A stretch of DNA of 20,000 nucleotides. It comes from an uncultured virus (IMG/VR IMGVR_UViG_3300028833_000012). Its lineage: Duplodnaviria > Heunggongvirae > Uroviricota > Caudoviricetes. The notes beneath the pieces are model-generated. The model did no database searches. It was not told the DNA's origin and saw only the letters and a program-made list of their open reading frames with translations. The stretch lies in IMG/VR virus record IMGVR_UViG_3300028833_000012. One strand, written 5' to 3'. Below, in pieces: positions 2,173 through 18,724 of this stretch (position 1 is the first letter of the stretch; every line of letters begins with the position of its first letter). The position numbers were made by a program, and so were the translations under genes.

Positions 2173-2231
2173 CACGGCCCGGATTAAGCGCCGACAGAGA
2201 GCGAGCATCCTGGGAGAATGACAGACTATTC

Positions 2232-2386: not shown

Positions 2387-2452
2387 CGCATCTTATCTTT
2401 GAGATCGCGAAGAAAAGTTTGCGATAGCGAACAAAAACAGGAGGAGAACATC

Positions 2453-3401: not shown

Positions 3402-3412
3402 AGGCCATTAGG

Positions 3413-3550: not shown

Positions 3551-3570
3551 ACGAAGGAGGAACAGACGAA

Positions 3571-3858: not shown

Positions 3859-4075
3859 GCGTGGCAACGTGGTTGTTGCCATTGAGACGATTGATGGATT
3901 CGGGAAAAACCCCGGCCTGTATATCGGCACAAACGTTCCAAACACGGTGTGGAAAGTTGCGAGCTTCAGAAGTGCGGACAAAGCACAGACGTTTTGCAAA
4001 TGGTTGGAGTACATAATGGGTATGATGGAGGAAGAGCCGGAGGAGGTGAGCGGGGATGAGGCCGATAGACGCTGA
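3848..4075 (+). CDS. hypothetical protein
   Basis: SD GGAGGT; ATG 3848, MRYERGNVVVAIE. Confidence 0.7.
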   Translation: MRYERGNVVVAIETIDGFGKNPGLYIGTNVPNTVWKVASFRSADKAQTFCKWLEYIMGMMEEEPEEVSGDEADRR

Positions 4076-4319
4076 TGAGCTGCTTGCCAGAATGCGAGAG
4101 CGTTGCGATTCGTGCCAGCACAGCGGCAATCGCGAGCATTGCCTCAATCTGTGCGAGTGGCGCGAGGCAATGGACGAGGTGGACGATATGCCGGAGATCG
4201 AGGCCAATGTGACCGCAACCGGCAACGGCGTGGCCATCGGCACGGTGCGCGGCGGGCTGGTGATCCAGCGGGCGAAAGAGATCACAAACATCAAGGACGT
4301 GGGGGTGTTCTACGGGTGA
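4056..4319 (+). CDS. hypothetical phage protein (MRxIDAD-type N-terminus)
   Basis: SD GGAGGTGA; MRPIDADELL start typical of small phage ORFs. Confidence 0.75.
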   Translation: MRPIDADELLARMRERCDSCQHSGNREHCLNLCEWREAMDEVDDMPEIEANVTATGNGVAIGTVRGGLVIQRAKEITNIKDVGVFYG

Positions 4320-4442
4320 GCGAGGACCTGACGAAGCAGGGCTACAGTACGTTGCTTCTTGGGAGTGCATTAACTGCGGGAAAATCGTTACGGAAAAAAC
4401 AGCGTATTGCCCAGGATGCGGGACGCGGATGGAGAGTGGGCA

Positions 4443-4610
4443 ATGAGGACGCTCTACAAGCGGATTGCCGATTGGCGCGGCACGGACTTCAAGCATAAGC
4501 CGAAATCATGGCGCGAATGGAAACAGGAGCAGACGCGGCGGTTCAGGCGGAAGGACAAGCAGGCAGTGAAAGACGAGGAAAAGATGAACGGAGGCGGTCG
4601 GGATGACTGA
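4443..4610 (+). CDS. small basic hypothetical protein
   Basis: SD GGAG; ATG 4443; overlaps next gene. Confidence 0.6.
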   Translation: MRTLYKRIADWRGTDFKHKPKSWREWKQEQTRRFRRKDKQAVKDEEKMNGGGRDD

Positions 4611-4866
4611 TATTAGAGCATTGCGGCATGCACTGAAACCCGCAATCGACACATCCTTTCGCAATAACCTTGGGGATGTGAAAATCCCTGCAGGTTTAGC
4701 AATGCAGATCGACGATGCGCTCCGGGAGCAGGAGCCTGTGAAGCCCGAGTTTGATTCACTCGATGGAAATGTTGGGAGATGGCGTTGCGGCAATTGTCAA
4801 GTTAGCTTGGGAGCCGTTCGTCCACCATACTGCTGGCATTGCGGAAGGAAGGTGAAGTGGGAATGA
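4603..4866 (+). CDS. Zn-ribbon protein, paralog 1
   Basis: EQEPVKP...WRCGNC...YCWHCGRKVKWE. Confidence 0.8.
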   Translation: MTDIRALRHALKPAIDTSFRNNLGDVKIPAGLAMQIDDALREQEPVKPEFDSLDGNVGRWRCGNCQVSLGAVRPPYCWHCGRKVKWE

Positions 4867-5141
4867 ATGAGCACGACAAGGTAGTATTATGGCTAAGCAG
4901 TTTTTTGAAAAACACTGAGCCTTTGGTGTTAGTTCCGAAGCATCTAATTAAACTAATATACGGCGAGTTGACAAAACAAGAAAAAATCGAACCGATTATA
5001 GGTCAGAGGGAGTCAGATTTCCGCTCCGAAATTGTAGATGTCCCCTTGTGCGGGAATTGCAGACATGAACTGGATAGATATGAACTGGGTCATGGTTGGC
5101 AGTATTGCCCACAGTGCGGAAAGGCGGTGAAGTGGGATTGA
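4863..5141 (+). CDS. Zn-ribbon protein, paralog 2
   Basis: ATGA overlap; LCGNC...YCPQCGKAVKWD. Confidence 0.8.
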   Translation: MNEHDKVVLWLSSFLKNTEPLVLVPKHLIKLIYGELTKQEKIEPIIGQRESDFRSEIVDVPLCGNCRHELDRYELGHGWQYCPQCGKAVKWD

Positions 5142-5383
5142 CTAACCAAGAAGCAATTGAGATTCTGAAAGCAAATTATCCCACATCAAACTATTCAGAA
5201 CTTCGTGAGGCTGTAGATATGGTTCTCACACTTCTTCAGAAGCAGGAGCCTGTGAAGCCAGAACTGCGTATGAGTAGGCACGGATTTAGACAATGGGTTG
5301 TATGCGGAAATTGCTATGGAAAGATAGATGGCGGAGACGACTATTGCCGCCATTGTGGAAGGAAAGTGGTATGGAATGAATAA
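5138..5383 (+). CDS. Zn-ribbon protein, paralog 3
   Basis: TTG start in a TTGA overlap; KQEPVKP...VCGNC...YCRHCGRKVVWNE. Confidence 0.75.
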   Translation: MTNQEAIEILKANYPTSNYSELREAVDMVLTLLQKQEPVKPELRMSRHGFRQWVVCGNCYGKIDGGDDYCRHCGRKVVWNE

Positions 5384-5672
5384 AAAGATGACGATTGAAG
5401 AAACTATCAATGGACTTCAAAGCATGATTCAAAGCAAAAAGTTTATTGAACATGATTTTAATGGAGTTGTAGATGAAGATGTTTGTGAACGTGCCATTGA
5501 ACTGCTGAAAGAGCAGGAAGCCGTTAAGCCGCATCTAGATGTAGATGAATAGAAGTGCGGGAACTGCGGTCACAGTTTGGAACATCAGGAAATGCTCGGT
5601 GACAATGTGCTGTTCCATGAATAGTACAATTACTGCCCGAATTGCGGGAGGATGGTGAAGTGGGATGCCTAG
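5376..5672 (+). pseudogene. Zn-ribbon protein, paralog 4, with two in-frame TAG codons (pseudogene or amber read-through)
   Basis: EQEAVKPHLDVDE*KCGNCGHSLEHQEMLGDNVLFHE*YNYCPNCGRMVKWDA*; TAG at 5550, 5622 and 5670. Confidence 0.75.
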
Positions 5673-5814
5673 ACTGATTGATGGAGACAGGCTTATTGAC
5701 TGGCTTCGCATAGTACCGCTTGAAAACGGGATGATTGACCCGGATGAGGTCGTAGACCATATTCGCGAAATGCAGATTATAAGGCCCGACCCGCCGAAGG
5801 AGGAAGAAAAATGA
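5665..5814 (+). CDS. small hypothetical protein (49 aa)
   Basis: MPRLIDGDRLIDWLRIV...PPKEEEK*; below the ORF-track cutoff; fills the gap and overlaps both neighbours. Confidence 0.65.
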   Translation: MPRLIDGDRLIDWLRIVPLENGMIDPDEVVDHIREMQIIRPDPPKEEEK

Positions 5815-6221
5815 AATATAACATCAAGGTCGGAGAAAAATATCTGGTTGGGGAAAACATACACGAAACATTAAATGGAACTGTAACAGGTGACACAACG
5901 GCAGTGTATAGCAGATTTGTAGGAGAAATGAGCGCGTATGATTTTTGTGAAACGGCAGACGAAGCGTCTTGCTTTGATCGAGTAACGGCATGTGATTATG
6001 TCCGCGGAATTATGGAGCGCCAGAACTACGGATTTTATCTTGGAGATATAAAATTGTTTGATGCCGAACACGAGGAAACGATTGTCCATTGCAAACACGA
6101 GGAAAATGCAAATGTTATTGCAAGAATCCTTGATATGGATGAAAAAGATACTTTCCTCGTTGAAGAAGAGATTTTTGGTAAAGACGCTGCAAACGAGCCC
6201 CCGAAGGAGGAAACGCCATGA
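5811..6221 (+). CDS. acidic hypothetical protein
   Basis: SD AAGGAGG; ATGA overlaps. Confidence 0.75.
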   Translation: MKYNIKVGEKYLVGENIHETLNGTVTGDTTAVYSRFVGEMSAYDFCETADEASCFDRVTACDYVRGIMERQNYGFYLGDIKLFDAEHEETIVHCKHEENANVIARILDMDEKDTFLVEEEIFGKDAANEPPKEETP

Positions 6222-6466
6222 CAATCGACTGCATTATCTGGGCCGTGACTGGCGTCTACGTGGGCGTGATCATTGGAATGTTTATAATGCTGTGCAAGAT
6301 CGAGCGGGACCTTGACAGTATGTACGACACAGCCTTCGACAGCGGCGTGGCATATGAGAAGGAAACACAGCAGATCGCGGAGCTGATCAGGGAGAATGAA
6401 CCGGGGGTGATAAAGGATGCCGATGTACGCAATGACCGTATCCAGCGAGCAGGCACGGGCGATTGA
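6218..6466 (+). CDS. hypothetical membrane protein
   Basis: N-terminal hydrophobic stretch IIWAVTGVYVGVIIGMFIML. Confidence 0.7.
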   Translation: MTIDCIIWAVTGVYVGVIIGMFIMLCKIERDLDSMYDTAFDSGVAYEKETQQIAELIRENEPGVIKDADVRNDRIQRAGTGD

Positions 6467-6782
6467 CAAGGCGGTGGAGCTGCTCCTGCGGCTGAAAATC
6501 GGGCAGTTTGACGTCCTGCCGCAGAACCTGATGGTGCTCGGATCAGAGGGCTACTGCGAGCACCGGGACGCGGCGAAACCGTATCTCGACAAGCTGGAGC
6601 AGGTGTTCTCGACATACTATCACAAAGACGATGAATGGCATAGGCTCTACGATCTTCATCAGGTGATCCGCAAGGCGATCCATGACGCGGAGCACCCGGA
6701 GACCGTGGGCGTGGACAGTTATCCGGTGGTGTGCACAGCCGGGGAGAAGATGGCGAGGATGGAGGTTTTGAAAAATGAGTGA
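6417..6782 (+). CDS. hypothetical protein
   Basis: SD GGGGTGA; GC3-rich ORF. Confidence 0.7.
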   Translation: MPMYAMTVSSEQARAIDKAVELLLRLKIGQFDVLPQNLMVLGSEGYCEHRDAAKPYLDKLEQVFSTYYHKDDEWHRLYDLHQVIRKAIHDAEHPETVGVDSYPVVCTAGEKMARMEVLKNE

Positions 6783-7086
6783 TATAAGCGACCTGATTCA
6801 GCGACTCGAATACAGGTTACGGTTCAAAACAGCGGATGGAGCAGCCTGCGTAATAGCGACTGACATGCTACAAGAAACGATTGAATTATTGCGCAAACAG
6901 GTTCCGCGAGAGCTAACAAAAACAGAGTGGGAAACGTGGAAGAAAACTAAGAATCGCGACCCGATCTGCATGATTTGGGAAGGAGACACGACACCGATTT
7001 GGGTGCTGAATCCGGAAGAAATTCATGAGCCGGCCTATCTGATGGGGCAACTTAGGCTATTCAACGGGAGGCCGTGCCGTGAGTAA
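6775..7086 (+). CDS. hypothetical protein
   Basis: SD GGAGGT; overlaps both neighbours. Confidence 0.7.
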   Translation: MSDISDLIQRLEYRLRFKTADGAACVIATDMLQETIELLRKQVPRELTKTEWETWKKTKNRDPICMIWEGDTTPIWVLNPEEIHEPAYLMGQLRLFNGRPCRE

Positions 7087-7504
7087 AAAGTCCCGTGTTA
7101 CAAAACAGTTTATTAACCACCTATTTGGTCTGTATCGTGTCCATCGAATCCCGGTTTATGTGCATTACCATCACGATTTTCTCGTAACGGACGAAGGCGA
7201 TACATCGTATGGGCTGTTCTGCTATGGAGATGGGATGCCGGAGTGTATTCACGTTGCCGCTGGGAAAACCGGATTGTTTCACACGCTGACGACGGTAGCG
7301 CACGAATTTTGCCACTATCTGCAATGGCTGCACGGGAGAGATATGTCTGACGGACAAATTGAAATCGACGCCATGTATTACGAAGGCCCAATGGTTGGTG
7401 CATGGTATATCAACAAAAAAAGCAAAAACGAGCACTGCTATGGCGCTCCGCCGGTATGGGAACCGCATGTGGAGGTGATGGACGATGCCGCCGAAGCTGA
7501 ATGA
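7079..7504 (+). CDS. putative zincin-like (HExxH) metallopeptidase
   Basis: TVAHEFCHYLQ followed by a downstream E.DA; GTG start after GGAGG. Confidence 0.6.
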   Translation: MSKKSRVTKQFINHLFGLYRVHRIPVYVHYHHDFLVTDEGDTSYGLFCYGDGMPECIHVAAGKTGLFHTLTTVAHEFCHYLQWLHGRDMSDGQIEIDAMYYEGPMVGAWYINKKSKNEHCYGAPPVWEPHVEVMDDAAEAE

Positions 7505-7769
7505 CGGCGGGTTTGTGCCGTATGAACTGCTTTTCCCAGGCGGAAGACCCGTGACCATCGGGACGGCAGAACTGCCGCCGGAACCGGGATGGGAACCGCC
7601 GGACTTAGGGTTACACGGATTCAGCGCGGACGTCCCGTTATCGCGGGCACAGACGAAGCGACTGATTAAGGCTTTTAACGCCGCTGTGAATGGGCATAAC
7701 CGGACGATTCGGTACGCAAAGAGACGGCGCGAAAAAGAGCGCAGACGGAGGTTAAAGGAATGCCACTGA
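7485..7769 (+). CDS. hypothetical protein
   Basis: SD GGAGGTGA; basic C-terminus. Confidence 0.65.
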   Translation: MPPKLNDGGFVPYELLFPGGRPVTIGTAELPPEPGWEPPDLGLHGFSADVPLSRAQTKRLIKAFNAAVNGHNRTIRYAKRRREKERRRRLKECH

Positions 7770-8134
7770 CTAAGATCGGGACGTGCGCATGGTGCGAGAA
7801 ACACAAAACAGTTGTTCGGTTTGCTGTGTATGTTGTGGATGGGCGCTATCATGCGTCCTACCTGTGCAAGCAATGTCTCGACACGTTGAAGTGGGAGATC
7901 AGGAAGGGCATCCGGTGTGATGCGCCCGTTGTTACGGCAGACAGCATCGACACTTTGGCAACAGATAACACGGGTGCATTCAGAAGCGCAAGGCGGCGAA
8001 GCGGAACAGATGCAAAGCACACCGAAACGCATTCAGAAACGCGCAAAGTCCATTCAGAGTCCATTCAGAAACATTCAGAAACATTCAGAAACAGAGGAGA
8101 CCAACACAATGAAATGCAAGGTTCAGACCAATGA
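7760..8134 (+). CDS. hypothetical CxxC-CxxC protein with a repeat-derived tail
   Basis: CAWC...CKQC; the C-terminus reads through the CATTCAGAAA repeats. Confidence 0.55.
   Translation: MPLTKIGTCAWCEKHKTVVRFAVYVVDGRYHASYLCKQCLDTLKWEIRKGIRCDAPVVTADSIDTLATDNTGAFRSARRRSGTDAKHTETHSETRKVHSESIQKHSETFRNRGDQHNEMQGSDQ
8030..8092 (+). repeat. CATTCAGA(A/G) array upstream of the clamp gene
   Basis: Five copies (TCAGAA at 8033, 8065, 8075, 8085; TCAGAG at 8054); the last three have an exact 10-bp period. Confidence 0.85.
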
Positions 8135-9197
8135 CATCGCGGCGGCGCTGGCTGTTGTCACGCGGGCCATCAGCACGAAAGCCATCAACCCGATCCAGAC
8201 TTGCGTCCTGCTTGAAGCGGAAGACAACGGGCTGACGCTGACCGGATCTGGCGGAGCAATGAGCATCCGGATGAGCATCCCGGCAATGGTCTCGGAGAAC
8301 GGCAGCGTGTCGGTAGACGGCGGCATGCTGGCGGCGCTGGCCCGGAAACTTCCGGCGGCGGATACCAACATGGAGACATCCGGCGGCACGCTCCGCATCC
8401 GGAGCGGTTCGTCCCGCACCAATCTGGCCGCACACAGCGGCGATGAGTATCCGCCAGCCATCACCGCCAAGGGCGGCACCGAAGCGACCGTGAAGAGCGG
8501 AACCCTCAAGCGCAGTATCTCGCAAGTGATCTACTGCGTGGCGCAGGATGAGGCGAGGCAGATCCTGACCGGCATCCTGATGGACGCATCCGGCGAGGGT
8601 ATCAAGATGGTCGCGCTCGACGGCTTCCGGATGGCGGAGGCCGTGACGGACGGTTTCTTCAGCGAGTGCCGCGCCGTGGTGCCCGGAGCCAGCGCCAAGG
8701 AGCTGGAGCGCATCCTCCCGGACACAGACGAGGACGTGAAGGTGACCGTCGGCGGCGGCAGGATGACGGCAGACTGCGGCGGTGTGGTGTTCTCGACTAC
8801 GCTGCTCGCCGGTGACTACATCGACTACGCAAAACTGATCCCGGCGGACTTCGCCACCCGGACGATGGCGGACCGGGACGCTCTGCTCCGCGCCATCGAC
8901 CGCGCCGAACTGATGGCACGCAACGCACACAACAACCTGGTGCAGCTGACCGTGTCGGATGAGGCCGTCAGCATCACGGCGCGTTCCGAGGTCGCCGACA
9001 CCGAGGAGACCGTGGCCTGCCAGACCAGCGGAAAGGGCCTGACCATCGCATTCAATGTCAAGTATCTGGCCGATGCCATCAAGGCGATGGAGGGCGACGA
9101 GATCGAGATCTGCTTCAACACGTCCACGTCCCCGGCGGTGCTCCGCTGTCCCGGACAGGGCGCGATGAGCCTGATCCTGCCTGTACGGGTGGCATGA
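8109..9197 (+). CDS. dnaN: DNA polymerase III beta sliding clamp
   Basis: 362 aa; VALDGFRMA, GDYIDY..LIP, IAFNVKYLAD, LILPVR; SD GAGGAG. Confidence 0.92.
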   Translation: MKCKVQTNDIAAALAVVTRAISTKAINPIQTCVLLEAEDNGLTLTGSGGAMSIRMSIPAMVSENGSVSVDGGMLAALARKLPAADTNMETSGGTLRIRSGSSRTNLAAHSGDEYPPAITAKGGTEATVKSGTLKRSISQVIYCVAQDEARQILTGILMDASGEGIKMVALDGFRMAEAVTDGFFSECRAVVPGASAKELERILPDTDEDVKVTVGGGRMTADCGGVVFSTTLLAGDYIDYAKLIPADFATRTMADRDALLRAIDRAELMARNAHNNLVQLTVSDEAVSITARSEVADTEETVACQTSGKGLTIAFNVKYLADAIKAMEGDEIEICFNTSTSPAVLRCPGQGAMSLILPVRVA

Positions 9198-9226
9198 CGC
9201 ATGACGCGGAAAGGGGGTGATGAAAT

Positions 9227-11146
9227 GTGAGCGGAAAGCAAGACGTGCCGACAGAAGTCCAGCAGGCAAAGCCGCTCGTCCCGCAATGGACGCTGGAAGA
9301 CTTCATGAGCGAGAAGCCCTACGCCTATCTCTACGCCTACAAGGACAAGAAGTTTCTGCTCCAGCAGATGCTCAACCGTGCGCAGGCGCAGGCTAAAGCG
9401 CTGAAATTCTCCGGTTTCATGCGGATGTGGAACAGCTATGTCGAGGCGAACAGTCCAAAGCAGACCATCCTCGGCGACTACCAGACCATGTTCCCGGAAC
9501 AGCCGCTCCAGTTGCGCTCCGGCCACTACAACTGCGACGAGTTTGGCGTGTCCTACACCGGACGTATGGGCGAGTCCGTCACGGTGTGCTCCCATCCGAT
9601 CATGCCGGTCATGCGCGTGGTCAATCTCGACAGCAAGGAGGAGAAAATGCAGATCGCCTTCCGGCGCGGGAGCAAGCAGAAGGAGTGGAGCACCCCCATC
9701 ATCTCCAAGGACGTGCTGGCCAGCAGCCAGAAGATCATCAGCCTTGCCAGACAGGGCGTGGCCGTCAACAGCGAGAACGCCAAGGACCTCGTCAGCTACT
9801 TGACCGACATGGAGAGCATGAACTACGACGAGATCCCGACACAGAACAGCACCGGCCACCTCGGCTGGCTCCCTGATGGACAGTTCTCTCCGTACTGTGA
9901 AGGCGTGGTCTACGACGGCGACAATCCGGAATTCAAGCGCATCTTCGACGGCTTCCGCGAGACCGGCAGCGAGAGCGTCTGGATGGGCATTGCCAAGGCC
10001 ACCCGGAGCGGGAAGAGCGTCCCGGCACGGCTGGCCCTGGCGGCGTCCTTCGCGGCCCCGCTGGTCAGCATCCTCAACGCCCTGCCGTTCTTCGTCCACA
10101 TCTGGGGTACACAGGGCTGCGGCAAAACTGTCGGCCTGATGCTGGCGGCAAGCGTCTGGGGCAACCCGGAAGTCGGCAAGTACATCAAGACGTTCGGCGG
10201 TACCAAGGTCAGTCAGGAATTGTACGCATCATTCTGCGGGAACGTGCCGATCATCCTCGACGAGCTGCAAATCATGGCAGACCGCAAGTCTTTTGACGAC
10301 ATCATCTACATGCTCTGCGAGGGCGTGAGCAAGGGTCGCGGTGCGAAAGACGGAGGACTCCAGTTACAGCGGCATTGGTCGAGCACCATCATCACGTCCG
10401 CAGAAATGCCCATCGTGCAGAGCAACAGCGGCGGCGGCGCGGCCGTCCGGACCATCGAAGTCAACTACGGCGGAGAACCGCTCTTTGAGGACAGCCGGAC
10501 CGTGGCGGAAACCCTCAAGCAGAACTACGGTTTCGCGGGCCGCAAGTTCATCGAGTCGCTCAAGGATCCGGAAACACTTCAAGCGCTCCGGGACATTCAG
10601 AAGCGGTACTACAGCCAGCTCTCCGGCGAGATTCAGGACAAGCAGGTGCTGGCCGCGTCCATCCTTCTGGCTGCCGACAAACTGGCTGATGCCGCCCTGT
10701 TCCATGACGGCAAGGCGCTGACGGTCGAAGAGATCAAGCCCTACCTGATCACGCGCGACCAGGCCGATGTCAACGTGCGGGCCTACAACTGGCTGTGCGG
10801 CTACATCGCCGGTAATCCACGCCGGTTCGACGCCAACGAGGAAAACCCCGGCGAGGTCTGGGGCGTGATCGAGAGCGGCATCTGCTATTTCAACCGCACT
10901 TTCTTCGACCGCGTGATGCACGCAGAAGCCTTCTCACCGTCCAGTTTCCTGACATGGGCCGACCGCAACGGCAAGATCATCCGGGAGTATTACGGTAAAA
11001 ACAGTGGGAATAACCGGATGACCGTTCGGAAAAAGGTCGGCGGCGCGAAGGTCGCCTGCGTGGCACTCCTCTTGCCGACCGACGATGATAAGGCACCAGT
11101 CCCGGTTATGATGACGCCTGTTCAGGATGACGATATGCCCTTCTAA
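9227..11146 (+). CDS. DUF927-domain replicative helicase/initiator (Cch-like)
   Basis: HLGW, Walker A GTQGCGKT, ASVWGNP, Walker B IILDE, G..KGRG.K.G, NYGFAG. Confidence 0.8.
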   Translation: MSGKQDVPTEVQQAKPLVPQWTLEDFMSEKPYAYLYAYKDKKFLLQQMLNRAQAQAKALKFSGFMRMWNSYVEANSPKQTILGDYQTMFPEQPLQLRSGHYNCDEFGVSYTGRMGESVTVCSHPIMPVMRVVNLDSKEEKMQIAFRRGSKQKEWSTPIISKDVLASSQKIISLARQGVAVNSENAKDLVSYLTDMESMNYDEIPTQNSTGHLGWLPDGQFSPYCEGVVYDGDNPEFKRIFDGFRETGSESVWMGIAKATRSGKSVPARLALAASFAAPLVSILNALPFFVHIWGTQGCGKTVGLMLAASVWGNPEVGKYIKTFGGTKVSQELYASFCGNVPIILDELQIMADRKSFDDIIYMLCEGVSKGRGAKDGGLQLQRHWSSTIITSAEMPIVQSNSGGGAAVRTIEVNYGGEPLFEDSRTVAETLKQNYGFAGRKFIESLKDPETLQALRDIQKRYYSQLSGEIQDKQVLAASILLAADKLADAALFHDGKALTVEEIKPYLITRDQADVNVRAYNWLCGYIAGNPRRFDANEENPGEVWGVIESGICYFNRTFFDRVMHAEAFSPSSFLTWADRNGKIIREYYGKNSGNNRMTVRKKVGGAKVACVALLLPTDDDKAPVPVMMTPVQDDDMPF

Positions 11147-11185
11147 TTCTTGACGGTCTCACTCCGGGTACGCTCAAAACAGCAG

Positions 11186-11436: not shown

Positions 11437-11527
11437 TTGTAAGTAGCGGCGTACACCAGAACACCACAAAACGCCATCAAAACACCATCAACACACCATC
11501 AAAACCACCAGAAACGGAGGCGATATC

Positions 11528-12310
11528 ATCAAAACCCTGATCGCAGTCCCCTGCATGCAGACCGTTCCGACAGCGTTCCTGCGCTCGCTGGAGGGCATGC
11601 GCCGTCTGCCGGACACCTACACGTCCATCAGCCAATGCACCCTGATCCATGACGCCCGCAACGAGTTCGCCAGCATCGCCATTCAGCACGGCTTCGACCG
11701 CATCCTCTGGATCGACAGCGACATGACATTCCCGCCTGACCTGCTGGAAAGACTGAGCAAGCACCTCGACAACGGCAAGTTCATGGCATGCGGTCTCTAC
11801 TTCAAGCGTGTCCTGCCGACCGGACCGGTGATCTACTGCCGTCAGGAGCGCCAAACCGACCCGGTACTCGGCGAACACATCCGCCCGGTGCCCTACACAG
11901 ACTACCCGCGCAACCAAACCTTCGAGATCGACGCCTGCGGTTTCGGTGCCGTCATGACGGACGTGGCTCTTGTCCGCGCTGTCTGGGATCGCTACGGTCC
12001 GCCCTTCACACCATACCTCAACATCGGCGAGGACCTGTCTTTCTGCTGGCGCGTCCGGGAGATGGGGCAGAAGATCTGGTGCGACTCGTCCATCTCTGCC
12101 GGACACATCGGCACCGCCATCTTCGATGAGGGCACCTGGATCGCCCAGCAGCGTGCTGTACCAGACAGGAACGACCATCAGAACGGTGACATTCAGAACG
12201 GTAATGACATTCAGAACAGCGGTGCCCATCCGGACGGTGAGGATGACCATCAGAGCAGTGACGGCATTCAGAACGAAACCAACCAGACCAACCACACAGA
12301 AGGGACGTGA
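11528..12310 (+). CDS. GT-A (GT2-like) glycosyltransferase, probable ATC start
   Basis: (I/M)KTLIAVPCM, ARN, WIDSDMTF (DxD), GFG, GEDLSFC, GHIG; GGAGG sits 7 nt before an in-frame ATC at 11528. Confidence 0.8.
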   Translation: MKTLIAVPCMQTVPTAFLRSLEGMRRLPDTYTSISQCTLIHDARNEFASIAIQHGFDRILWIDSDMTFPPDLLERLSKHLDNGKFMACGLYFKRVLPTGPVIYCRQERQTDPVLGEHIRPVPYTDYPRNQTFEIDACGFGAVMTDVALVRAVWDRYGPPFTPYLNIGEDLSFCWRVREMGQKIWCDSSISAGHIGTAIFDEGTWIAQQRAVPDRNDHQNGDIQNGNDIQNSGAHPDGEDDHQSSDGIQNETNQTNHTEGT

Positions 12311-12792
12311 CCAACACGAACTACTATGACGGCTATGTTGACCATATGTGGCGATTCTACGTCCGCAATCAGACCGCCACACTCGACACACTCGGCAACG
12401 CTTCACGCGAAAACTGGACGGTCTGCGACAGCATCTACCACAAAAGCAACCCGTTCCGCCAAGAAATCCTATCAGCATACTACGCCCCCTATTTCACCGG
12501 CACCGCCCAGGATAACCTGACCGTCTACTGTGAGGAACACAACGTCTCCACCGAGCAGGCCAACAACGCCCTCCGCTCCATCCGTACCATCACCGCTGTC
12601 GAGCGCGGCCTGCTTGACCGCCTGCCGCCAGAGCAGCGCAAAGCATTCCGCCATGCTCCGGGTTCAGGCAAGAGGACCGTTGTCACCAGTAGCGGGCTGA
12701 TCGAAATGACCGGTAAGACTGAGTTGACCGGGCAACATTCAGAACAAGACAACCAACATTCAGAAACTACAATAGCCCATACAGAGGAGTGA
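12307..12792 (+). CDS. phage hypothetical protein, possibly a late-transcription regulator
   Basis: GTGA overlap; YY..YV.H.WRFY...RGLL. The regulator role is inferred only from its position upstream of terS. Confidence 0.55.
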   Translation: MTNTNYYDGYVDHMWRFYVRNQTATLDTLGNASRENWTVCDSIYHKSNPFRQEILSAYYAPYFTGTAQDNLTVYCEEHNVSTEQANNALRSIRTITAVERGLLDRLPPEQRKAFRHAPGSGKRTVVTSSGLIEMTGKTELTGQHSEQDNQHSETTIAHTEE

Positions 12793-12798
12793 TTCAGA

Positions 12799-13365
12799 AT
12801 GCCAACGAGAAAACCGGAACAGCTTCCGGACGATGTCGTAAATACCGTCGTCAAACGCCACCGTGGTTCCTTTCCAACCGAACTGGACAACATCCACGTT
12901 GACCCAGGCGACAATTCCCGCTTCGTCCGCTACGCTATGGCCGCTTGGGACTTGCCGCCTATCGACATCTCCGACCCGCAACAGGTCCGTGACCGTATCA
13001 TTATGTATTTCCAACACTGCGCCGATAACGACCGCAAACCTCAGCTTACCGGCATGGCTAACTGGCTCGGCGTGTCAAGAGATACACTTAATTCTTGGAA
13101 AAGGGGAGAGTATAGGAAAGATACGCACTCCGACATTGTGCAAAAAGCTGTCAGTGCGCTTGAAGAAATGTGGGCTGACTACATGATGAACGGCAAGGTC
13201 AATCCGGCAAGCGGGATCTTCATTTCCAAGAACTGGTTTGGATATGCCGACACGCAGAACATTGTCGTCACACCAAACAATCCGCTCGACAACATGAGCC
13301 AGGACGATGCCCGCAACAGATACGCTAACGCTCTGCCTGAAATCGCTGACGATGGCAACGAGTAA
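12799..13365 (+). CDS. terS: terminase small subunit (P22 gp3-like)
   Basis: YF..C...RKP.LTGMA.WLGVSR.TL..W HTH; NPASGIF..KNWFGY.D. Confidence 0.8.
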   Translation: MPTRKPEQLPDDVVNTVVKRHRGSFPTELDNIHVDPGDNSRFVRYAMAAWDLPPIDISDPQQVRDRIIMYFQHCADNDRKPQLTGMANWLGVSRDTLNSWKRGEYRKDTHSDIVQKAVSALEEMWADYMMNGKVNPASGIFISKNWFGYADTQNIVVTPNNPLDNMSQDDARNRYANALPEIADDGNE

Positions 13366-13388
13366 CCAGCAAGCCCGGTAGCCATAAG

Positions 13389-13498
13389 AAAGCAACCTGT
13401 ACCCGACGAGACGTATATATAAGCTATAGCGTACAATATATATAACAAAATGTACGTTATAAATATATATATATGTCTATAACGTGTCAGGTTGCTTT
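13389..13498. repeat. AT-rich long hairpin/cruciform just after terS
   Basis: AAAGCAACCTG/CAGGTTGCTTT, AGACGTATATATA/TATATATATGTCT, TATAGCGTACA/TGTACGTTATA. Confidence 0.7.
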
Positions 13499-14138
13499 TG
13501 CCTATTGACTGGCTTCTGGGCGTGCAGTCTGTACCGCAACTCTGGCCGTCCGGGTGGTGTGATGGCGGCTTGTCTTCCTCCGGGCAGCGTCCGTGCTGGG
13601 CGGCGTTGACCATCAGAAGGTGCGTTTGGCGGCTGGCCCGGTTTGGGCGGCGGCGTGACTGTGCAGCGGGAACGAGACCGGCAGCACTCGCGCCCTTGGA
13701 TGGCAAAGCGACGGCGGTTCGGACCGTGACGGTTGGACAGGACCGGCGGCGGAATCATCCACCCCTGATTGCAAAACGCAGCAGAAGCGGACGATGCGCC
13801 CAGGAATCGCCGCTATGCTGTCCAGAATGCGCCAGGATCGTCTCGTGGCGTTTGGCGTGGGAAATATCCATCAGAAACAGGAAGCGCTCAGAAGGGCGTT
13901 TTTGTGGCTCTATGAGCGTGTCGCTTATAACATGGTTGATAACGCGGTTTATAGCCGGGTTGATAACGTCAAAACAGAATAGCGCAATCAGAATTGATTT
14001 TAGGGCGGTCAGAAGGGGCTTGCGAGCGTCTCGCTGTGTTTAGATTGGTTTGTGTCCATCTGGATAGTGAGCGCGTCAGAAGGGCGTTATTGACAGAATG
14101 CGGGCGTGGTGCGTCAGAACGGGCGGATTGTGCGCACG

Positions 14139-14162
14139 AAAAAAGCCCGCACGGTGGCGGGC
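14139..14162 (-). terminator. intrinsic terminator of the minus-strand operon
   Basis: Minus strand GCCCGC-CACCGT-GCGGGC-TTTTTT, about 20 nt after the last stop codon. Confidence 0.8.
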
Positions 14163-14183
14163 GGTGTGGGCGATTGGCGGTGG

Positions 14184-14597
14184 TCAAACAACGGTGAAAT
14201 TCTCATTGTACTTCTGGCGATGGCGTTCACAGTAACGGTTTACAAATTCCTGCGGATCGGTGATGCCCTCAGCATGGAGGTCTTCGCGGATGTCGTCGTC
14301 CATCAGGGATACGGCGCTGTCCAGGCTTACGAAGTCGCCGTTGACGTCAACAAGGCGTTCCGCGAGCTGCCACGCATAAGCGGTGACGAAGTTCGGCGTG
14401 AAGGTCGTGATGACGCGCTCACCGTCGAAGATCGGGCAGTCGTAGAGGTCGTCACAGGCGCGGTCGGCCATGCGCTGCTTGTCAAAGGACAGGTCGCGGG
14501 TGCTTGTGATTTCCTTGCCGTTGACCACAATGTGACGGTCGCCAATCAAGGATACGGTGACTGGGTTCTGGTTTTCGTCATAAGCGCGAATGATCAT
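14184..14597 (-). CDS. AcrIC5-like anti-CRISPR domain fused to an ~80-aa unknown N-terminal domain
   Basis: C-terminal VNGDFVSLDSAVSLMDDDIREDLH...QEFVNRYCERHRQKYNENF resembles AcrIC5 as recalled (NG..IDFDAAVNLMDAELREELH...QEFLDAY..AH..KF..EEF). Confidence 0.7.
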   Translation of the reverse strand: MIIRAYDENQNPVTVSLIGDRHIVVNGKEITSTRDLSFDKQRMADRACDDLYDCPIFDGERVITTFTPNFVTAYAWQLAERLVDVNGDFVSLDSAVSLMDDDIREDLHAEGITDPQEFVNRYCERHRQKYNENFTVV

Positions 14598-14644
14598 GAT
14601 GTTGGCTCCTTTCATTTTCGGGTGGCTTGTTATTCAGAATCTTA

Positions 14645-14809
14645 TCACGCAGGCAGCACGCTGTCAAGGGTGACAGTGACGCGCTGGCCAGGATAGCGGG
14701 CGTGAATCCATCGGCGGAGGCGGCTTTCCGCCTCGCTTGGATCGGCGGCAAGGCTGTTCCAGATGCCGCTGTGGTGACGGGTGCGCCAGGTCAGGATGTA
14801 GTACTTCAT
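14645..14809 (-). CDS. small hypothetical protein (54 aa)
   Basis: SD GGGAG; MKYYILTWRTRH. Confidence 0.65.
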   Translation of the reverse strand: MKYYILTWRTRHHSGIWNSLAADPSEAESRLRRWIHARYPGQRVTVTLDSVLPA

Positions 14810-14835
14810 GGTGTTATCTCCCTTCTTTGTGTCGG

Positions 14836-15111
14836 TCAGGTAAAGCAGAAGCGGCATGCGGTGGTGGTCTTGGTGTACTTGGCGGCGATGTCAGGCAGCG
14901 CCTTTTTCAACGCGGCGGTGTCGATGCGGCTGCTGGTGACGGTCTTCCAGGTGGCTTTCCATCCGGTGCCGGTCAGGATCTCGTCGCCGCTGTCAATCAT
15001 GGCGGCTTTGAATTCGTCCCGGATTGCGTCGGCCTCGGCGTTAAGCTCGTCAATCAGAGTCAGGATCTCACGCAGGCGGGCGGCTTTCGGGTCCAGGTGT
15101 TTCATGGTCAT
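14836..15111 (-). CDS. coiled-coil phage protein resembling the C-terminal part of YqaJ-type proteins
   Basis: SD AAGGAGG; coiled coil, then WKATWK..TSSRIDT.ALKK..P....Y.K....RF. Confidence 0.65.
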   Translation of the reverse strand: MTMKHLDPKAARLREILTLIDELNAEADAIRDEFKAAMIDSGDEILTGTGWKATWKTVTSSRIDTAALKKALPDIAAKYTKTTTACRFCFT

Positions 15112-15128
15112 GGTTTTATCCTCCTTCT

Positions 15129-15848
15129 TCAGGCCACGCAGGCCTTGCTTGTCCAATAGTCAATCAGAGCGTTTATCATGTTTTCCGGTATCATAGGCAG
15201 CTGGTAACGGTCCATGCCTTCCGGCGTCATGTAGTAGCCCTGGCCATATCGTGGCAGGTTCTCACAGCCGGACACGCCGAGGATGTTTCTGCTGTCTTGT
15301 GCTGATCGCGTCCTGAGCCCTACTCGCGCATCCATGTTGCACTTGATTTCCGTTGGGATCACTTTGGCAAGCGGGCACTGTGTCGCTGCGATCAGGTGTA
15401 CACGGGCCGCGCGGCCAAGCTGGCATATCCGCTGAATCAGGGGCTGCACTGTTTTTTTGTCGGTGAGCATCAAGTCTGCCAGCTCGTCAATCAGAATATA
15501 GACGTGACTGCCGCTGTAGGATCTCGCGCCGGTGCGCTGCATTTCAGAAAACCGGTCTTCCATTATCTGGACGGCATAGCGTAATGCTCGCGCTGGTTCG
15601 CCTGGTTCGCTTGCATAGGTCAGGACGTGCGGCAAGGCCTTGTACTGTACCAGCTCGACGCGCTTGGGGTCAATCAGAATCAAACGGCACGTTGCAGGGC
15701 TATGGTTCATCAGCAGCGCGTGGAGGATCCCATTGATCACAACGGACTTTCCGCTGCCGGTCGCGCCTGCAATCAGAAGGTGCGGCTGTTGCGCCATGTT
15801 GTAATACAGAGGGCTGTACTGACCGGCTGGTGTGCGGTATGTTGGCAA
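15129..15848 (-). CDS. stand-alone FtsK/SpoIIIE-family ATPase domain
   Basis: HLLIAGATGSGKS, LIDPKRVEL, ILIDELADLM, LGRAARVHLIAATQ, E.L...G; TTG start after AAGGGGTG. Confidence 0.88.
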   Translation of the reverse strand: MPTYRTPAGQYSPLYYNMAQQPHLLIAGATGSGKSVVINGILHALLMNHSPATCRLILIDPKRVELVQYKALPHVLTYASEPGEPARALRYAVQIMEDRFSEMQRTGARSYSGSHVYILIDELADLMLTDKKTVQPLIQRICQLGRAARVHLIAATQCPLAKVIPTEIKCNMDARVGLRTRSAQDSRNILGVSGCENLPRYGQGYYMTPEGMDRYQLPMIPENMINALIDYWTSKACVA

Positions 15849-15851
15849 GTT

Positions 15852-16043
15852 TTACACCCCCTTCCGTGGAATTGCACGGTAGAACGCCATGTATCCGCAT
15901 CTGTTGGATTTGGACCGCGTGGTTTCAATCAGAACATAATCTTTTTTCCATCGCCGTATGGAATTGTAGTGGCGGCTGTAGGTGGTTGGAAAATGATAGT
16001 ATGGGTTGCTGCCGTCCTCGAATGTTATGTGATAGCTATACAT
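15852..16043 (-). CDS. small hypothetical protein
   Basis: SD AAGGAGGT; MYSYHITFEDGSNPY. Confidence 0.7.
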   Translation of the reverse strand: MYSYHITFEDGSNPYYHFPTTYSRHYNSIRRWKKDYVLIETTRSKSNRCGYMAFYRAIPRKGV

Positions 16044-16046
16044 GGT

Positions 16047-16205
16047 TCAGACCTCCTTGATCTCTTCAACGGTGAACCAGGGGCAGCCGTGGGCCTCGGC
16101 AATGGTATATGCTTCCCAGAATCCAGGTTCTGTTTCGCTCTGCACGGTGGTTTCGTATGTGATTTCATTGGCGTCAGCAGAACAGACGATTAACCAGGTT
16201 TTCAT
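16047..16205 (-). CDS. small acidic hypothetical protein (52 aa)
   Basis: MKTWLIVCSADANEITYETTVQSETEPGFWEAYTIAEAHGCPWFTVEEIKEV*; not in the ORF track. Confidence 0.65.
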   Translation of the reverse strand: MKTWLIVCSADANEITYETTVQSETEPGFWEAYTIAEAHGCPWFTVEEIKEV

Positions 16206-16222
16206 TGTTGCGCTCACTTTCT

Positions 16223-16246
16223 CCCCGTATAGCCGGATAGGTCAGC
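16223..16246 (-). ncRNA. small pseudoknot-like motif, copy 2
   Basis: GCTG-ACCTATC-CGGC-TAT-ACGGGG. Confidence 0.45.
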
Positions 16247-16252
16247 TTGTTT

Positions 16253-16807
16253 TTACAGTCGAATCGGTAAGATTACGCCAACACCGTACTCAGAGCATGC
16301 CCAGATCGGAGAGAGAGATTTTTTACTGCGGTCGATGTAGAAATCGGCATCCGGCAGTGCCGTCAGCATGTCGCGGAGATATGCCGAATTATATACCGGC
16401 GAATCTGCATACCTTCCGGCACGGAAGCAGAGTGAACTTTTGCCGTGACTGAACGTGCCTGATTTTACGTCAGCCTCCGTAAATTTCAGAAGTTCGGAAT
16501 CCTCATTCGTCAGGTCGTATACGTTTTTCAGTAGCTTTTCAACAGTTTTGTGCATATTTGCCGTCCGTGCCTGATCTTCCGGGCCTGCAATGTGAATCCC
16601 GTAAAGCGCCGGGACGCCCTCAGCGGGTACCTTGGCGAGCGCGATTGCCCGATAACCGTCAGTTTGAATGTAGCCGATTGGTGAATCCCAGCCGTTGATC
16701 GGCTGATTGATTCGTTCCCCGGCAGCGTTGTACCGGGTAACTCTTGCAGAGTTTGCAAAGATCTTGCGAATGACTGCGGCGGCTTTTTTGTCAGTATAGC
16801 GCGGCAT
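16253..16807 (-). CDS. miniature beta-clamp-like protein
   Basis: TDGYRA, YNSAYL.D, SP and C-terminal VILPIRL mirror DnaN motifs; SD AAAGGAG. Confidence 0.55.
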   Translation of the reverse strand: MPRYTDKKAAAVIRKIFANSARVTRYNAAGERINQPINGWDSPIGYIQTDGYRAIALAKVPAEGVPALYGIHIAGPEDQARTANMHKTVEKLLKNVYDLTNEDSELLKFTEADVKSGTFSHGKSSLCFRAGRYADSPVYNSAYLRDMLTALPDADFYIDRSKKSLSPIWACSEYGVGVILPIRL

Positions 16808-16822
16808 AATGTCATCTCCTTT

Positions 16823-17419
16823 TCAGAATTTCCACGACTTGGTGTGAATGTGGTTCAGGTTGCTTAGCAAAATTCCATTGTGCTCTGTAAATTTCCCGAT
16901 GGTGACAATCTCTCCGGTTCCGTCCATGATTGCCAGTCTAGACCAACCGATCAGAGATTCGATCTCGGTCAGAAGTGCGGCGTCAATGTCGCTGGTTGTG
17001 CGCATCATGCCGGACAAATACCCGGCGACGAATAGCGCGGTGTCGCTGTAGTTGTGTTCGGCGGGATCGGCAGTGACCGGGATAATGCCGTTGTGCGCAA
17101 TGCCAACGGTGCAACGGACATCCAGCGCCTTGGTAATGGAAAGCCTCGACGTCAGTGGAAACGGCTGGGTCATCTCAGGATTTACACCGGCCTGTGTAGA
17201 AATGCGGAAATGATAGACAACCGGATCGGCGGCGGTCAGGCGCTCAGACCGGACGGCCCGCCAGAAATCATCAAACCACATGAACCCCTTATGTATTTCC
17301 ACACGTCCGCCACGGGCCAGCATATAGCCGGCCCCGTGCGGGTTGTGGTTGAACATGGCAAGCAGCTCGGCCTTGGTGGGTTGCCGCGTGCCGCGTTCAG
17401 AAACTGCAATTACACACAT
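16823..17419 (-). CDS. class II (Ntn) glutamine amidotransferase
   Basis: N-terminal MC, NPHGAG, HFRIST, PF, HNGII, SDT. Confidence 0.88.
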   Translation of the reverse strand: MCVIAVSERGTRQPTKAELLAMFNHNPHGAGYMLARGGRVEIHKGFMWFDDFWRAVRSERLTAADPVVYHFRISTQAGVNPEMTQPFPLTSRLSITKALDVRCTVGIAHNGIIPVTADPAEHNYSDTALFVAGYLSGMMRTTSDIDAALLTEIESLIGWSRLAIMDGTGEIVTIGKFTEHNGILLSNLNHIHTKSWKF

Positions 17420-17423
17420 GTGC

Positions 17424-17879
17424 TCAACCTCCGATCACAAATTCGCAAATGTCGCCGTTCGGTTTTTTGCAAAGTTCGCTGTAAATTTTCAAAATATCCT
17501 CGTCGGTGATCGACTCCGCCATTTTACACAGGTCTTTGTAATTCTTTCGCGGGTGCTTTCCGCCGTCCATGTCCCGCTGATGTCCGAAACCAGAGGAGAC
17601 CATAACGCCGGGCGTGCTGCTGGGCCGCCAGAAGGTCAGATCCATCTCGATATGGTAGTGCCCGGCAGGCGTCCGCCAGCGGCAGCCGTACTCGTTTACG
17701 TGATGTTCGACGTTTTCAACATACCAGAGTTTAGCGCGGAGCTCGCCGCCGTCCTTGGTCTCGATGCTGCGATAGATGGTCTTTTCACTCCACAGTACAT
17801 AGTATTTCCAATCAAAATGCCAGTTGCCGGGTGCCTGATTCTCCAACTTGTTTGCCTGTTCTCTCGTGATGGTTGCCAT
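17424..17879 (-). CDS. hypothetical protein (151 aa)
   Basis: SD GAGGTG before ATG 17879. Confidence 0.75.
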   Translation of the reverse strand: MATITREQANKLENQAPGNWHFDWKYYVLWSEKTIYRSIETKDGGELRAKLWYVENVEHHVNEYGCRWRTPAGHYHIEMDLTFWRPSSTPGVMVSSGFGHQRDMDGGKHPRKNYKDLCKMAESITDEDILKIYSELCKKPNGDICEFVIGG

Positions 17880-17913
17880 TGTTTTTTCCACCTCTCACTG
17901 TAATTTGCGGTTT

Positions 17914-17978
17914 TCCCGCGACGCCCTGTAAATTCAGAGCGTTTCGGCTGGGAACCATCCAGCACTCGTCAGGCGGGA
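17914..17978 (-). ncRNA. type I hammerhead ribozyme
   Basis: UCCCGC-CUGACGA-G(U)GCUGG-AUGGUUC-CCAGCC-GAAA-CGCUCUG-AAUUUA-CAGGGCG-UC^GCGGGA: full catalytic core and three stems. Confidence 0.9.
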
Positions 17979-17980
17979 TT

Positions 17981-18178
17981 TTACAGTTGGCCTTGTAAAA
18001 CCTCATTCAGAAACCAGTCGTAGCCAGGGACGCGGGACCCGTCCGGGCGGATATACTCGACACGGAATGTTTGCGGGTTCATCCGAACGGCGACGCCGGG
18101 AGCGTGCTGCGCTTCCGCAAGCTTGACGGCGGCACGCTCGTGCGGAAATTGCTTGAAGCTGGGATTGAACATTGTCAT
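17981..18178 (-). CDS. small hypothetical protein (65 aa)
   Basis: SD GGAGG. Confidence 0.7.
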   Translation of the reverse strand: MTMFNPSFKQFPHERAAVKLAEAQHAPGVAVRMNPQTFRVEYIRPDGSRVPGYDWFLNEVLQGQL

Positions 18179-18204
18179 GGTTTACACCCTCCACTGTATT
18201 TTTT

Positions 18205-18227
18205 GCCCGTGTTGCCGATAGCGCAGC
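18205..18227 (-). ncRNA. small pseudoknot-like motif, copy 1
   Basis: GCTG-CGCTAT-CGGC-AAC-ACGGGC. Confidence 0.45.
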
Positions 18228-18240
18228 GGTTTTTTACGGT

Positions 18241-18591
18241 TTACGCTGTAATTTTCTGCACCTGATCCCTTGTAAACCAGAACGCCTTGCGGAGATAGCA
18301 GCGGCCGCCCGTGACTGTTTCGCCGTCCGTATCGCCGTCGCCGTCTCCATCAGAATCGGCCCGGCGTCCGCTCTTGTACTTCCAGACCGGGAACGCGGCC
18401 CGCGCGTGTTCGCCCTTTTTGACGATAAAGCCGAGAGACTTCCAGCCATTAAAAGTGTGAATTTCTTCCGGCAGTGCAATCCTGACCGGTTCGCCGTTTT
18501 CGTTTTCGCCGTCCATGTATCCGGCAATTTTCAGAACGCCTTCCTGCATCAGCCGTACAGACTCATTCAGAATGATTTGATTGTTTGTCAT
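18241..18591 (-). CDS. ArdC N-terminal-like ssDNA-binding domain protein
   Basis: HTFNGWKSLGFIVKKGEHA...W....F...QV; lacks the ArdC zincin domain. Confidence 0.65.
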   Translation of the reverse strand: MTNNQIILNESVRLMQEGVLKIAGYMDGENENGEPVRIALPEEIHTFNGWKSLGFIVKKGEHARAAFPVWKYKSGRRADSDGDGDGDTDGETVTGGRCYLRKAFWFTRDQVQKITA

Positions 18592-18635
18592 AGCGCCCGC
18601 CTTCCTTTCTGTTTTTCCGTCGTGTGGTGTAAGTT

Positions 18636-18709
18636 TGCGCTGACTCTGTATTCTTCCGGGCTTGTCACCGGCGGCCGCCATTCAGAAGGTGACCGGCTAC
18701 ATTAGCGCA
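18636..18709 (-). ncRNA. type-P1 twister ribozyme
   Basis: UGCGC-U^AA-UGUA-GC-[CGGUC..GGCCG]-CCGG-UGAC-AAGC-CCGG-AAGAA-UACA-GA-GUCA-GCGCA: P1-P4 and both pseudoknots can form. Confidence 0.9.
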
Positions 18710-18724
18710 CCGGGCCGGGAACCC

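Follow-up and report, generated by a model that had tools for sequence, protein, structure and literature searches.

The terS locus and its TCAGAA words

The window analysed here is a stretch of 20,000 nucleotides from an uncultured virus (IMG/VR IMGVR_UViG_3300028833_000012) and forms part of a 24.9-kb contig of a gut phage. Its rightward (+) genes encode methyltransferases, the sliding clamp DnaN (dnaN, 8109–9197; Pfam PF00712/02767/02768), a DUF927/Cch-type helicase (9227–11146), a glycosyltransferase-like protein and the small terminase of the GP3_package family (terS, 12799–13365). A non-coding gap in which rightward and leftward genes converge (13366–14183) is followed by an inverted accessory operon between terS and terL (14184–19687, −), which holds an AcrIC5 domain, a weak ArdC-N match, a gene for a minimal FtsK-like ATPase of 239 residues (15129–15848, −), unassigned genes and two ribozyme-like RNAs. 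Across this arrangement runs a field of the hexamer TCAGAA (7980–18687), with 35 copies on the + strand, none on the opposite strand and an extended consensus of approximately (C)ATTCAGAA. The field, its counterparts in related phages and its candidate reader, the FtsK-like ATPase, are the subject of this analysis.

An exact count over the window gave 38 copies of TCAGAA on the + strand (3966–18687) and two of TTCTGA (29 and 5163), where composition predicts 4.4 and 3.3; a sequence-only reading of the same DNA had arrived at the same counts and at about four per strand by chance. Its estimate of a roughly tenfold enrichment depends on the null, being approximately 9-fold under composition and only 4.6-fold under a second-order Markov model (8.3 expected). 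Among the hexamers of the window, TCAGAA ranks first by count and by strand difference. The polarity is indeed the same in + genes (15 copies), − genes (13 copies) and non-coding DNA (10 copies), and all three frames are used. Codon pairs may account for part of this, as had been suggested, with 9 of the 13 copies within − genes in the frame xTT-CTG-A, but the counts still exceeded 2000 synonymous-codon shuffles: 13 vs 3.4 expected in − genes (maximum 10) and 12 vs 2.3 in + genes from 7760 on (maximum 9). The + genes left of 7800 hold 3 copies vs 1.8, which is not significant (one open reading frame (ORF) was shuffled in the wrong frame). The enrichment thus survived codon-preserving shuffles, and it recurs in related phages, both in a close relative (G001) and in more distant ones. 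We conclude from these sequence statistics that the TCAGAA field is a real, oriented and selected DNA-level signal, as the sequence-only reading had proposed.

The words are unevenly spread. The ratio of + to − copies is 3:2 at 1–7900, 6:0 at 7901–12100, 14:0 at 12101–14200, 15:0 at 14201–18724 and 0:0 beyond, and in the 4.8 kb by which the contig extends beyond the window on the left it is 1:4; the three leftmost + copies (3966–5241) are at chance level and outside the field. Density peaks at 6.7 per kb between 12.1 and 14.2 kb. The claims that 29 of the 38 copies lie beyond 12100 and that seven stand in the gap after terS were both borne out by counting, although only two copies, rather than several, read TCAGAAGGGCGTT. 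Seven copies (12178–12799) occupy the low-complexity tails of the glycosyltransferase-like ORF and of ORF 12307–12792, plus the terS leader; the helicase gene holds one, terS none, and the inverted operon 15 on its non-coding strand. A 10-bp tandem array of CATTCAGAAA (3.2 copies) with one neighbouring word (8033–8093, +) had been taken for non-coding DNA before dnaN. It lies instead in the tail of ORF 7760–8134, which is regarded as a gene because it has an orthologue in G001, where an orthologous cluster of words is also present. No helical phasing of the words was found beyond this single array. The last copy (18682) does sit in a variable hairpin loop, as had been described, but the surrounding twister-P1-like ribozyme (18638–18707, −; 46 bits, E value 7e-8) does not reach the Rfam gathering score of 67.2.

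G001 is a 92%-complete genome whose dnaN and ftsK are 94% and 95% identical to those of the window; its gene order is terS, inverted operon, resolvase, terL, SPP1-type portal and capsid, and it also encodes an integrase and a repressor-like gene. From 6 kb before to 7 kb after its terS, TCAGAA stands at 31:3, vs 6:11 elsewhere. Near terS it occurs 11 times in − genes vs 1.6 expected (rank 1 of 4096 hexamers) and 12 times in + genes vs 2.0 (rank 3 of 4096), whereas genes far from terS are at expectation (6 vs 9.0), and neither a mirror field nor a polarity switch was found in this genome. Of the 23 TCAGAA sites that can be aligned between the window and G001, 21 are conserved, compared with a fraction of 0.69 when all hexamers are considered (p = 0.012); in more distant relatives the figures are 4 of 8 and 4 of 7 (p = 0.11 for both). 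The signal is therefore regional, covering about 11 kb around terS, and a genome-wide signal was rejected on the chance-level flanks of the window, the contig and G001.

This local character bears on the proposal that the words are sites of an orientation-dependent restriction system (type III, BREX or another), acting as decoys or all facing the same way. The word is asymmetric, it stands in an anti-defence region and the phage encodes methyltransferases. Escape from orientation-dependent enzymes depletes one orientation genome-wide, as with T7 and EcoP15; here both orientations occur in expected numbers far from terS, and what is seen locally is an enrichment. Moreover, the word occurs across distant hosts and goes with ftsK rather than with a methyltransferase. 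We found no support for the decoy option of the sequence-only reading and consider restriction the least probable of all explanations.

As to the position of the words relative to the genome termini, a contig depth step near terS was seen in one sample. Depth was taken as contig means of assembled contigs from the source sample in two runs (X1 and X2; runs X3 and X5, available as small shares only, were excluded), values that the tool used advises against reading finely. In X1, depth was 37.5–45 left of 13.9 kb and 70.6–72.6 to the right; in X2 it was 38.5–43 on the left, 52.1 for the contig spanning 5457–15024 and 75–86 on the right. The ratio across the step was 1.8–2.1, with the step at 13.1–13.5 kb in X1 and at 11.6–12.7 kb in X2. 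The resulting interval (11600–13910), over which depth goes from about 40 to 71–77, may contain the start of packaging or the left boundary of a terminal repeat. Contigs of the two runs break at different places and each run is continuous over the other's break; because no break is common to both, a second strain joining at the step is unlikely, and a step without a branch is the pattern expected of molecule ends. The depth data thus hint at a packaging start, or at the beginning of a terminal repeat of at least 6 kb, at about terS.

Oriented words in FtsK-bearing and FtsK-less relatives

Searches with TerS yielded 159 loci (15 + 74 + 70 new), or 105 after removal of those more than 90% identical. 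Seven with less than 1.5 kb after terS were dropped, leaving 98, of which 50 carry an FtsK-like gene and 48 do not; 13 of these 48 stop short of terL or of 4.5 kb, and the counts therefore cover 35 FtsK-less loci. The two classes differ in their signals. A CGACT array in the gap after terS was present in 26 of the 35 FtsK-less loci and in none of the 50 FtsK-bearing ones, whereas TCAGAA, GCAGAA, GGAACG or GGAGCG was skewed onto the terS strand (p < 0.002) in 31 of the 50 FtsK-bearing loci vs 2 of the 35 FtsK-less ones, with p values that are post hoc because the words had been picked on these same loci. The CGACT(A/T)T array is a compact, oriented element about 500–1000 bp from the terS start (within L030–L168, for example L076, L078, L081 and L090), with irregular spacing, mostly of 7–13 bases, in FtsK-less phages from records of Clostridia, Erysipelotrichia and Coriobacteriia. 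A complete genome with the array (G025) has no FtsK-like gene.

A fresh test used loci fetched by FtsK alone, from the best 80 of 471 hits (41 after dereplication, 36 after dropping five seen before). GCAGAA or TCAGAA was skewed in 22 of the 36 (p < 0.005) and a CGACT array was present in none. Inside ftsK the reverse word occurred 16 times vs 2.7 expected, and in the 420 bp past the ftsK stop GCAGAA stood at 119:8 across 33 loci. Over 5 kb, word density climbed from 0.8 to 4.3 copies per 500 bp before falling to 0.3; the field stopped at ftsK in these loci and did not extend across the operon, unlike in the window. Fields of GCAGAA and of CGACT are alike in shape, with a left ramp, a peak in the gap and an abrupt fall, the ramps standing at 1.2- to 2.7-fold (GCAGAA) and 0.46- to 3.7-fold (CGACT) of codon expectation. 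A TerS-family gene adjoined ftsK in 37 of the 41 loci.

The identity of the word also goes with the locus. Words inside ftsK match the class assigned from the surrounding DNA (a mean of 3.0, 1.2, 1.8 and 2.3 copies per ftsK gene in the four classes, off-class words at no more than 0.8). A second gene order, with the inverted FtsK operon upstream of terS and terL directly after it, occurs in L031, L127–L130, L150, L159–L166, L169 and L170; with the operon upstream, the field had moved with it, to −5 to −3 kb. The local word is present in cargo genes that are not homologous, and homologous genes differ between lineages in the word that they contain. When counts are pooled, cargo genes shared among loci also have the local word, although 38 of 44 GGAGCG copies stem from a single family and TCAGAA and GCAGAA are represented by 3 and 4 sites. 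Counted with no shuffled-label control, the FtsK/CGACT state has changed at least 10 times along the TerS tree and 9 times along that of TerL. In relatives, GGAACG and GCAGAA appear skewed genome-wide, but this was rejected as a signal, since codon expectation accounts for it in all genomes tested except G020; for GCAGAA the skew in far genes arises because this word also encodes Ala-Glu. In G020, the count of GGAACG in genes far from terS is also mildly above what codons predict (46 vs 27.9).

Further lineage-specific oriented words, several of them tandem repeats, were seen near terS in L093, L111, L151, L167 and L109: (ATCGCTA)n at 16:0, GATCCTG at 34:1, GCTCCG at 40:1 (in a short locus with no FtsK match), AACGAAG at 20:2 and CCTGCT at 28:2. 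The word changes from lineage to lineage at the same place near terS, a feature that, like the confinement to about 11 kb, the sequence-only reading had missed.

These data leave little room for fields without function, produced by local slippage repeats, codon pairs and shared ancestry. Some copies do lie in tandem arrays, the xTT-CTG-A frame is favoured in − genes and GCAGAA also encodes Ala-Glu. The codon shuffles and the use of all three frames argue against such an origin, as do the presence of the local word in non-homologous cargo, the lineage-specific words of homologous genes and a prediction that held in new loci. We regard this explanation as largely refuted already and very improbable.

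Another phage protein might instead read the words, or they might act on the rightward RNA that meets the inverted operon, for example in termination control. The irregular spacing of CGACT and the unphased fields of FtsK-bearing phages would suit a single-strand binder, and every field lies at a convergent junction, on the strand that is sense for rightward transcripts. However, in the 36 loci fetched with FtsK the field ends at ftsK rather than spanning the antisense operon, and CGACT arrays persist where there is no convergent junction. No other gene family tracking either class was found within the fetched flanks (up to 10 kb, ORFs of at least 55–60 residues), so no candidate family for another reader emerged there, although small or divergent genes could escape clustering. 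Neither a partner gene common to FtsK-bearing loci nor a gene specific to CGACT loci was found in these flanks. We consider this pair of possibilities improbable.

The hosts offer a further possible reader. As host Chi-like sites, the words could halt AddAB that enters at the right end and favour RecA-dependent joining of the terminal repeats; a mechanism of this kind has been proposed for P1. According to a study of P1 (10.1101/2021.07.08.451572), Chi sites there are denser near the ends and were proposed to drive circularisation; Chi is described as acting on an enzyme arriving from its 3′ side, a geometry that would suit an end on the right here. GGAGCGG contains the B. subtilis Chi AGCGG and resembles the S. 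aureus site GAAGCGG as given in the same source, and the absence of a phage gene tracking CGACT would suit a host reader. Chromosomes that carry relatives of the window phage give a different picture: GCAGAA stands at 80:67 in 400 kb of one (G006; 96 expected) and at 52:59 in 160 kb of a second whose orientation is unreliable (G007), and CGACT at 20:23 in 240 kb of a third (G011). Enrichment or skew of the kind expected for Chi or for FtsK orienting polar sequences (KOPS) was thus not found in the sampled parts of these three genomes, with the reservation, made in the P1 study, that computational Chi tests can fail. In addition, CGACT is common to records from Lachnospiraceae to Collinsella, the word switches with a phage gene, and P1 sites are on both strands where the TCAGAA field is on one. 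The Chi-like option of the sequence-only reading is weakened by these counts, and we hold it to be unlikely.

Records with the CGACT array are titled Lachnospiraceae, Dorea, Catenibacterium, Criibacterium and Collinsella, and Oscillospiraceae and Coprobacillaceae records hold both classes; many of these records are bins, which may misplace phage contigs.

The minimal FtsK-like ATPase as candidate reader

The 239-residue protein consists of the FtsK beta (RecA-fold) domain only (Pfam E value 1.8e-38), with no alpha domain, gamma domain or membrane anchor. An alignment-based model had a predicted local distance difference test (pLDDT) score of 95.4 and its best Foldseek match was 6t8b (TM-score 0.87). 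Walker A and B motifs and the arginine finger (R146) were invariant in 52 sequences. Relatives of about 370 residues add sequence N-terminally only, and these too accompany GCAGAA, so that the beta domain is the only part common to all. From the comparison of loci, the FtsK-like gene is the best correlate of the word, which makes its product a candidate reader.

The main alternative is that the words are TerS binding boxes of a broad pac region and that ftsK merely co-travels in the same module. The field peaks beside terS and at the depth step, the CGACT array lies 500–1000 bp from the terS start and retains the terS orientation even if the genes downstream are rightward, and the pac of SPP1 is described as having several contact points flanking the cut (PMC9611059). 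Furthermore, the TerS tree fits the split between CAGAA and GGARCG words as well as the FtsK tree does. Against this stands G001, where the N-terminal 150 residues of TerS (L015:10001–10540, compared with 12799–13365 of the window) have been replaced by those of a distant type, the C-terminal tail being identical. The two proteins are only about 40% identical, yet TCAGAA is retained at 33:4. A search for close relatives of the G001 TerS gave one match, at 43%, with neither FtsK nor a field of words. One and the same putative recognition helix accompanies TCAGAA, GCAGAA and GGAACG, very different helices go with CGACT, and a field whose operon lies upstream leaves terS behind. Beyond the coarse CAGAA/GGARCG split the word does not co-vary with TerS sequence, and the binding of pac-type TerS to DNA in vitro is reported to be weak and largely independent of sequence (PMC9611059). 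No solved structure of a relative of this TerS was found by sequence, and a predicted TerS–FtsK complex scored 0.00, which is not evidence either way. The TerS option of the sequence-only reading is weakened by the swap in G001; we consider it unlikely, though it stands closest to the FtsK reading.

We tentatively prefer to see TCAGAA as a signpost that loads or steers the minimal FtsK motor of the phage at the chromosome end, at somewhat less than an even chance; the reader is probably this FtsK, with the same reserve. The word would be a one-way signpost specific to the phage and maintained by selection where the packaged chromosome ends, at the packaging start or terminal repeat just after terS. 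A ring of the minimal ATPase would assemble at the words and move along the DNA to the terminus region, and FtsK and word together may have taken over the job done by the compact CGACT array in FtsK-less relatives. Since there is no gamma domain, the beta ring itself or a partner would have to read the bases. The job might possibly be to position or activate the terminase cut, which we place slightly ahead of end handling after injection; the latter, such as protection or joining of terminal repeats, is the more doubtful of the two. A serine resolvase lies between the inverted operon and terL, 5.4–6.0 kb right of the terS start in G001, and is present in 70 of 130 loci, FtsK-bearing and FtsK-less alike; a role in joining terminal repeats is conceivable. 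In the most extended form of the proposal, which is possible but rather unlikely, a large family of temperate phages of gut and rumen would have repeatedly exchanged an ancestral CGACT terminus array for signposts of their own, with a gamma-less, beta-only FtsK ring that itself reads an oriented hexamer and travels to the chromosome end to set the packaging start, the word drifting with the motor (TCAGAA, GCAGAA, GCAGAACG, GGAACGG, GGAGCGG).

Several observations weigh against FtsK as the reader. The FtsK link is the best supported, on comparative grounds, of the options in the sequence-only reading, yet the protein ends after the beta domain and has no KOPS-reading gamma domain, and FtsK_gamma (PF09397) was found in none of 10 phage genomes searched. 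In FtsK, gamma is described as reading KOPS, while the beta loops (K657/R661 and R632/K643) contact the backbone only (PMC7321959); of these basic residues the phage protein keeps R661 and K643, with C158 in place of R632 and A183 in place of K657. Identical pore loops occur with TCAGAA, GCAGAA and GGAGCG. The FtsK alignment columns that best predict GGAACG vs GGAGCG reach 0.81, under the 95% permutation bound of 0.88, so that residue–word covariation is weak. On the comparative side, no tested word reached threshold in 19 of 50 and 14 of 36 FtsK-bearing loci, the four words of the first test were chosen on the loci in which they were counted, and only four independent pairs lie on supported branches (never in the opposite direction; median p = 0.25). 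The CAGAA/GGARCG split requires two changes on the FtsK, TerS and TerL trees alike, and so cannot tell FtsK from terminase. The depth step rests on contig means from a single sample in which the two runs differ by about 1 kb. Two features of FtsK do vary with the word: residue 183 (K/R vs A; p = 0.043, uncorrected and among related sequences) and a 5-residue insertion that tracks GGARCG (23 of 26) vs CAGAA (23 of 26), representing about one event.

Among known systems, the arrangement works most like KOPS and the SpoIIIE recognition sequences (SRS), or like the TraB/clt system of Streptomyces, and is a member of neither. KOPS/SRS words are given as GGGNAGGG in E. coli, GAGAAGGG in B. subtilis and GAGAAG in L. 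lactis (PMC8190038). The resemblance lies in a short asymmetric word that rises on one strand towards a target region and in a motor of the FtsK family (the 6t8b match). The TCAGAA system differs in being phage-encoded, local (about 11 kb) and one-sided, with no polarity switch in G001, no gamma domain in the protein or among the 10 genomes and no Xer/dif identified; because the gamma domain and the polarity switch are both missing, it does not belong to KOPS/SRS–FtsK. TraB and its 8-bp clt direct repeats likewise combine an element-encoded FtsK-like ATPase with the element's own repeats, which differ between elements (PMC4447253). However, TraB is described there as having a C-terminal clt-recognition domain and a membrane channel and as serving plasmid transfer between cells, whereas the 239-residue phage protein has neither and its gene is located beside terS; without anchor and recognition domain it is not a TraB/clt member.

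Chi in P1 is also a selected short word found both within and outside genes, and in that temperate phage it is concentrated near the chromosome ends (10.1101/2021.07.08.451572), as TCAGAA may be here. It is, however, the word of the host and occurs on both strands, whereas the word of the window is on one strand, is not skewed in the three host genomes sampled and varies with a phage gene. The pac sites of P22, Sf6 and SPP1 are asymmetric signals in or near terS at the packaging start, as the field may be here, and measure tens to a few hundred bases in the account cited (PMC9611059), compared with several kilobases for the TCAGAA field. A published link between FtsK parts and packaging initiation is the TerS–FtsK_gamma fusion of the Bacillus phages Sam46 and Sam112 (PMC8190038); as described, Sam46 has the gamma reader without the motor, and the phages studied here have the motor without the gamma reader. 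We conclude that the TCAGAA system is a new variant of polar-word signalling. A literature search, conducted largely outside subscription papers, returned no description of the TCAGAA signal, the CGACT array or the terS–ftsK gene pair, and no annotated cultured phage with a TerS of the window type was found.

If FtsK is the reader, the system would represent a sequence-reading mode new for FtsK, and pac recognition would gain a third component. The words bear on how headful phages recognise their own DNA, a process in which TerS is described as binding pac weakly and mostly irrespective of sequence in vitro (PMC9611059). The phage family is a natural experiment in which one position holds two mutually exclusive signal types and several word variants, and a candidate reader of 239 residues can be expressed and tested. 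Stand-alone FtsK-like genes are common in phages (368 records), and the association provides a first clue to their function; word fields may serve as sequence markers to locate termini in uncultured phages. The CGACT array, conserved among FtsK-less relatives, is a second unexplained signal that is present in cultured hosts and hence testable now.

Other features of the window

Several features of the window fall outside the argument above. The dnaN product has one relative at 93% identity, the next nearest proteins being at most 44% identical. An 11-bp tandem array of AACACCATCAA (4.6 copies; 11460–11510, +) resembles a degenerate TCAGAA context. A scan for promoters and terminators gave a result near chance.

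In the inverted operon, the AcrIC5 domain forms the C terminus of a 143-residue ORF (14184–14615, −; E value 2e-15), and the ArdC N-terminal match (18241–18591, −) is weak (E value 0.001). A hammerhead-like RNA (RAGATH-1, E value 0.014; 17915–17994, −) is below the Rfam gathering score, and an Rfam scan of the window at that level gave no match; this RNA and the twister-P1-like RNA both lie at gene junctions of the operon. A search for relatives of the gene at 18725–19687 found none. Upstream of the operon, a perfect 28-bp tandem repeat runs from 19874 through 20000 and beyond the window to the end of the contig, where the assembly stops.

At the left of the window, a Dam-type methyltransferase gene (PF05869; 540–988, +) is apparently split over two frames, which match profile positions 6–81 and 76–146. 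A run of small paralogue-like genes with terminal CxxC...CxxC zinc-ribbon motifs occupies 3571–5552 (+).

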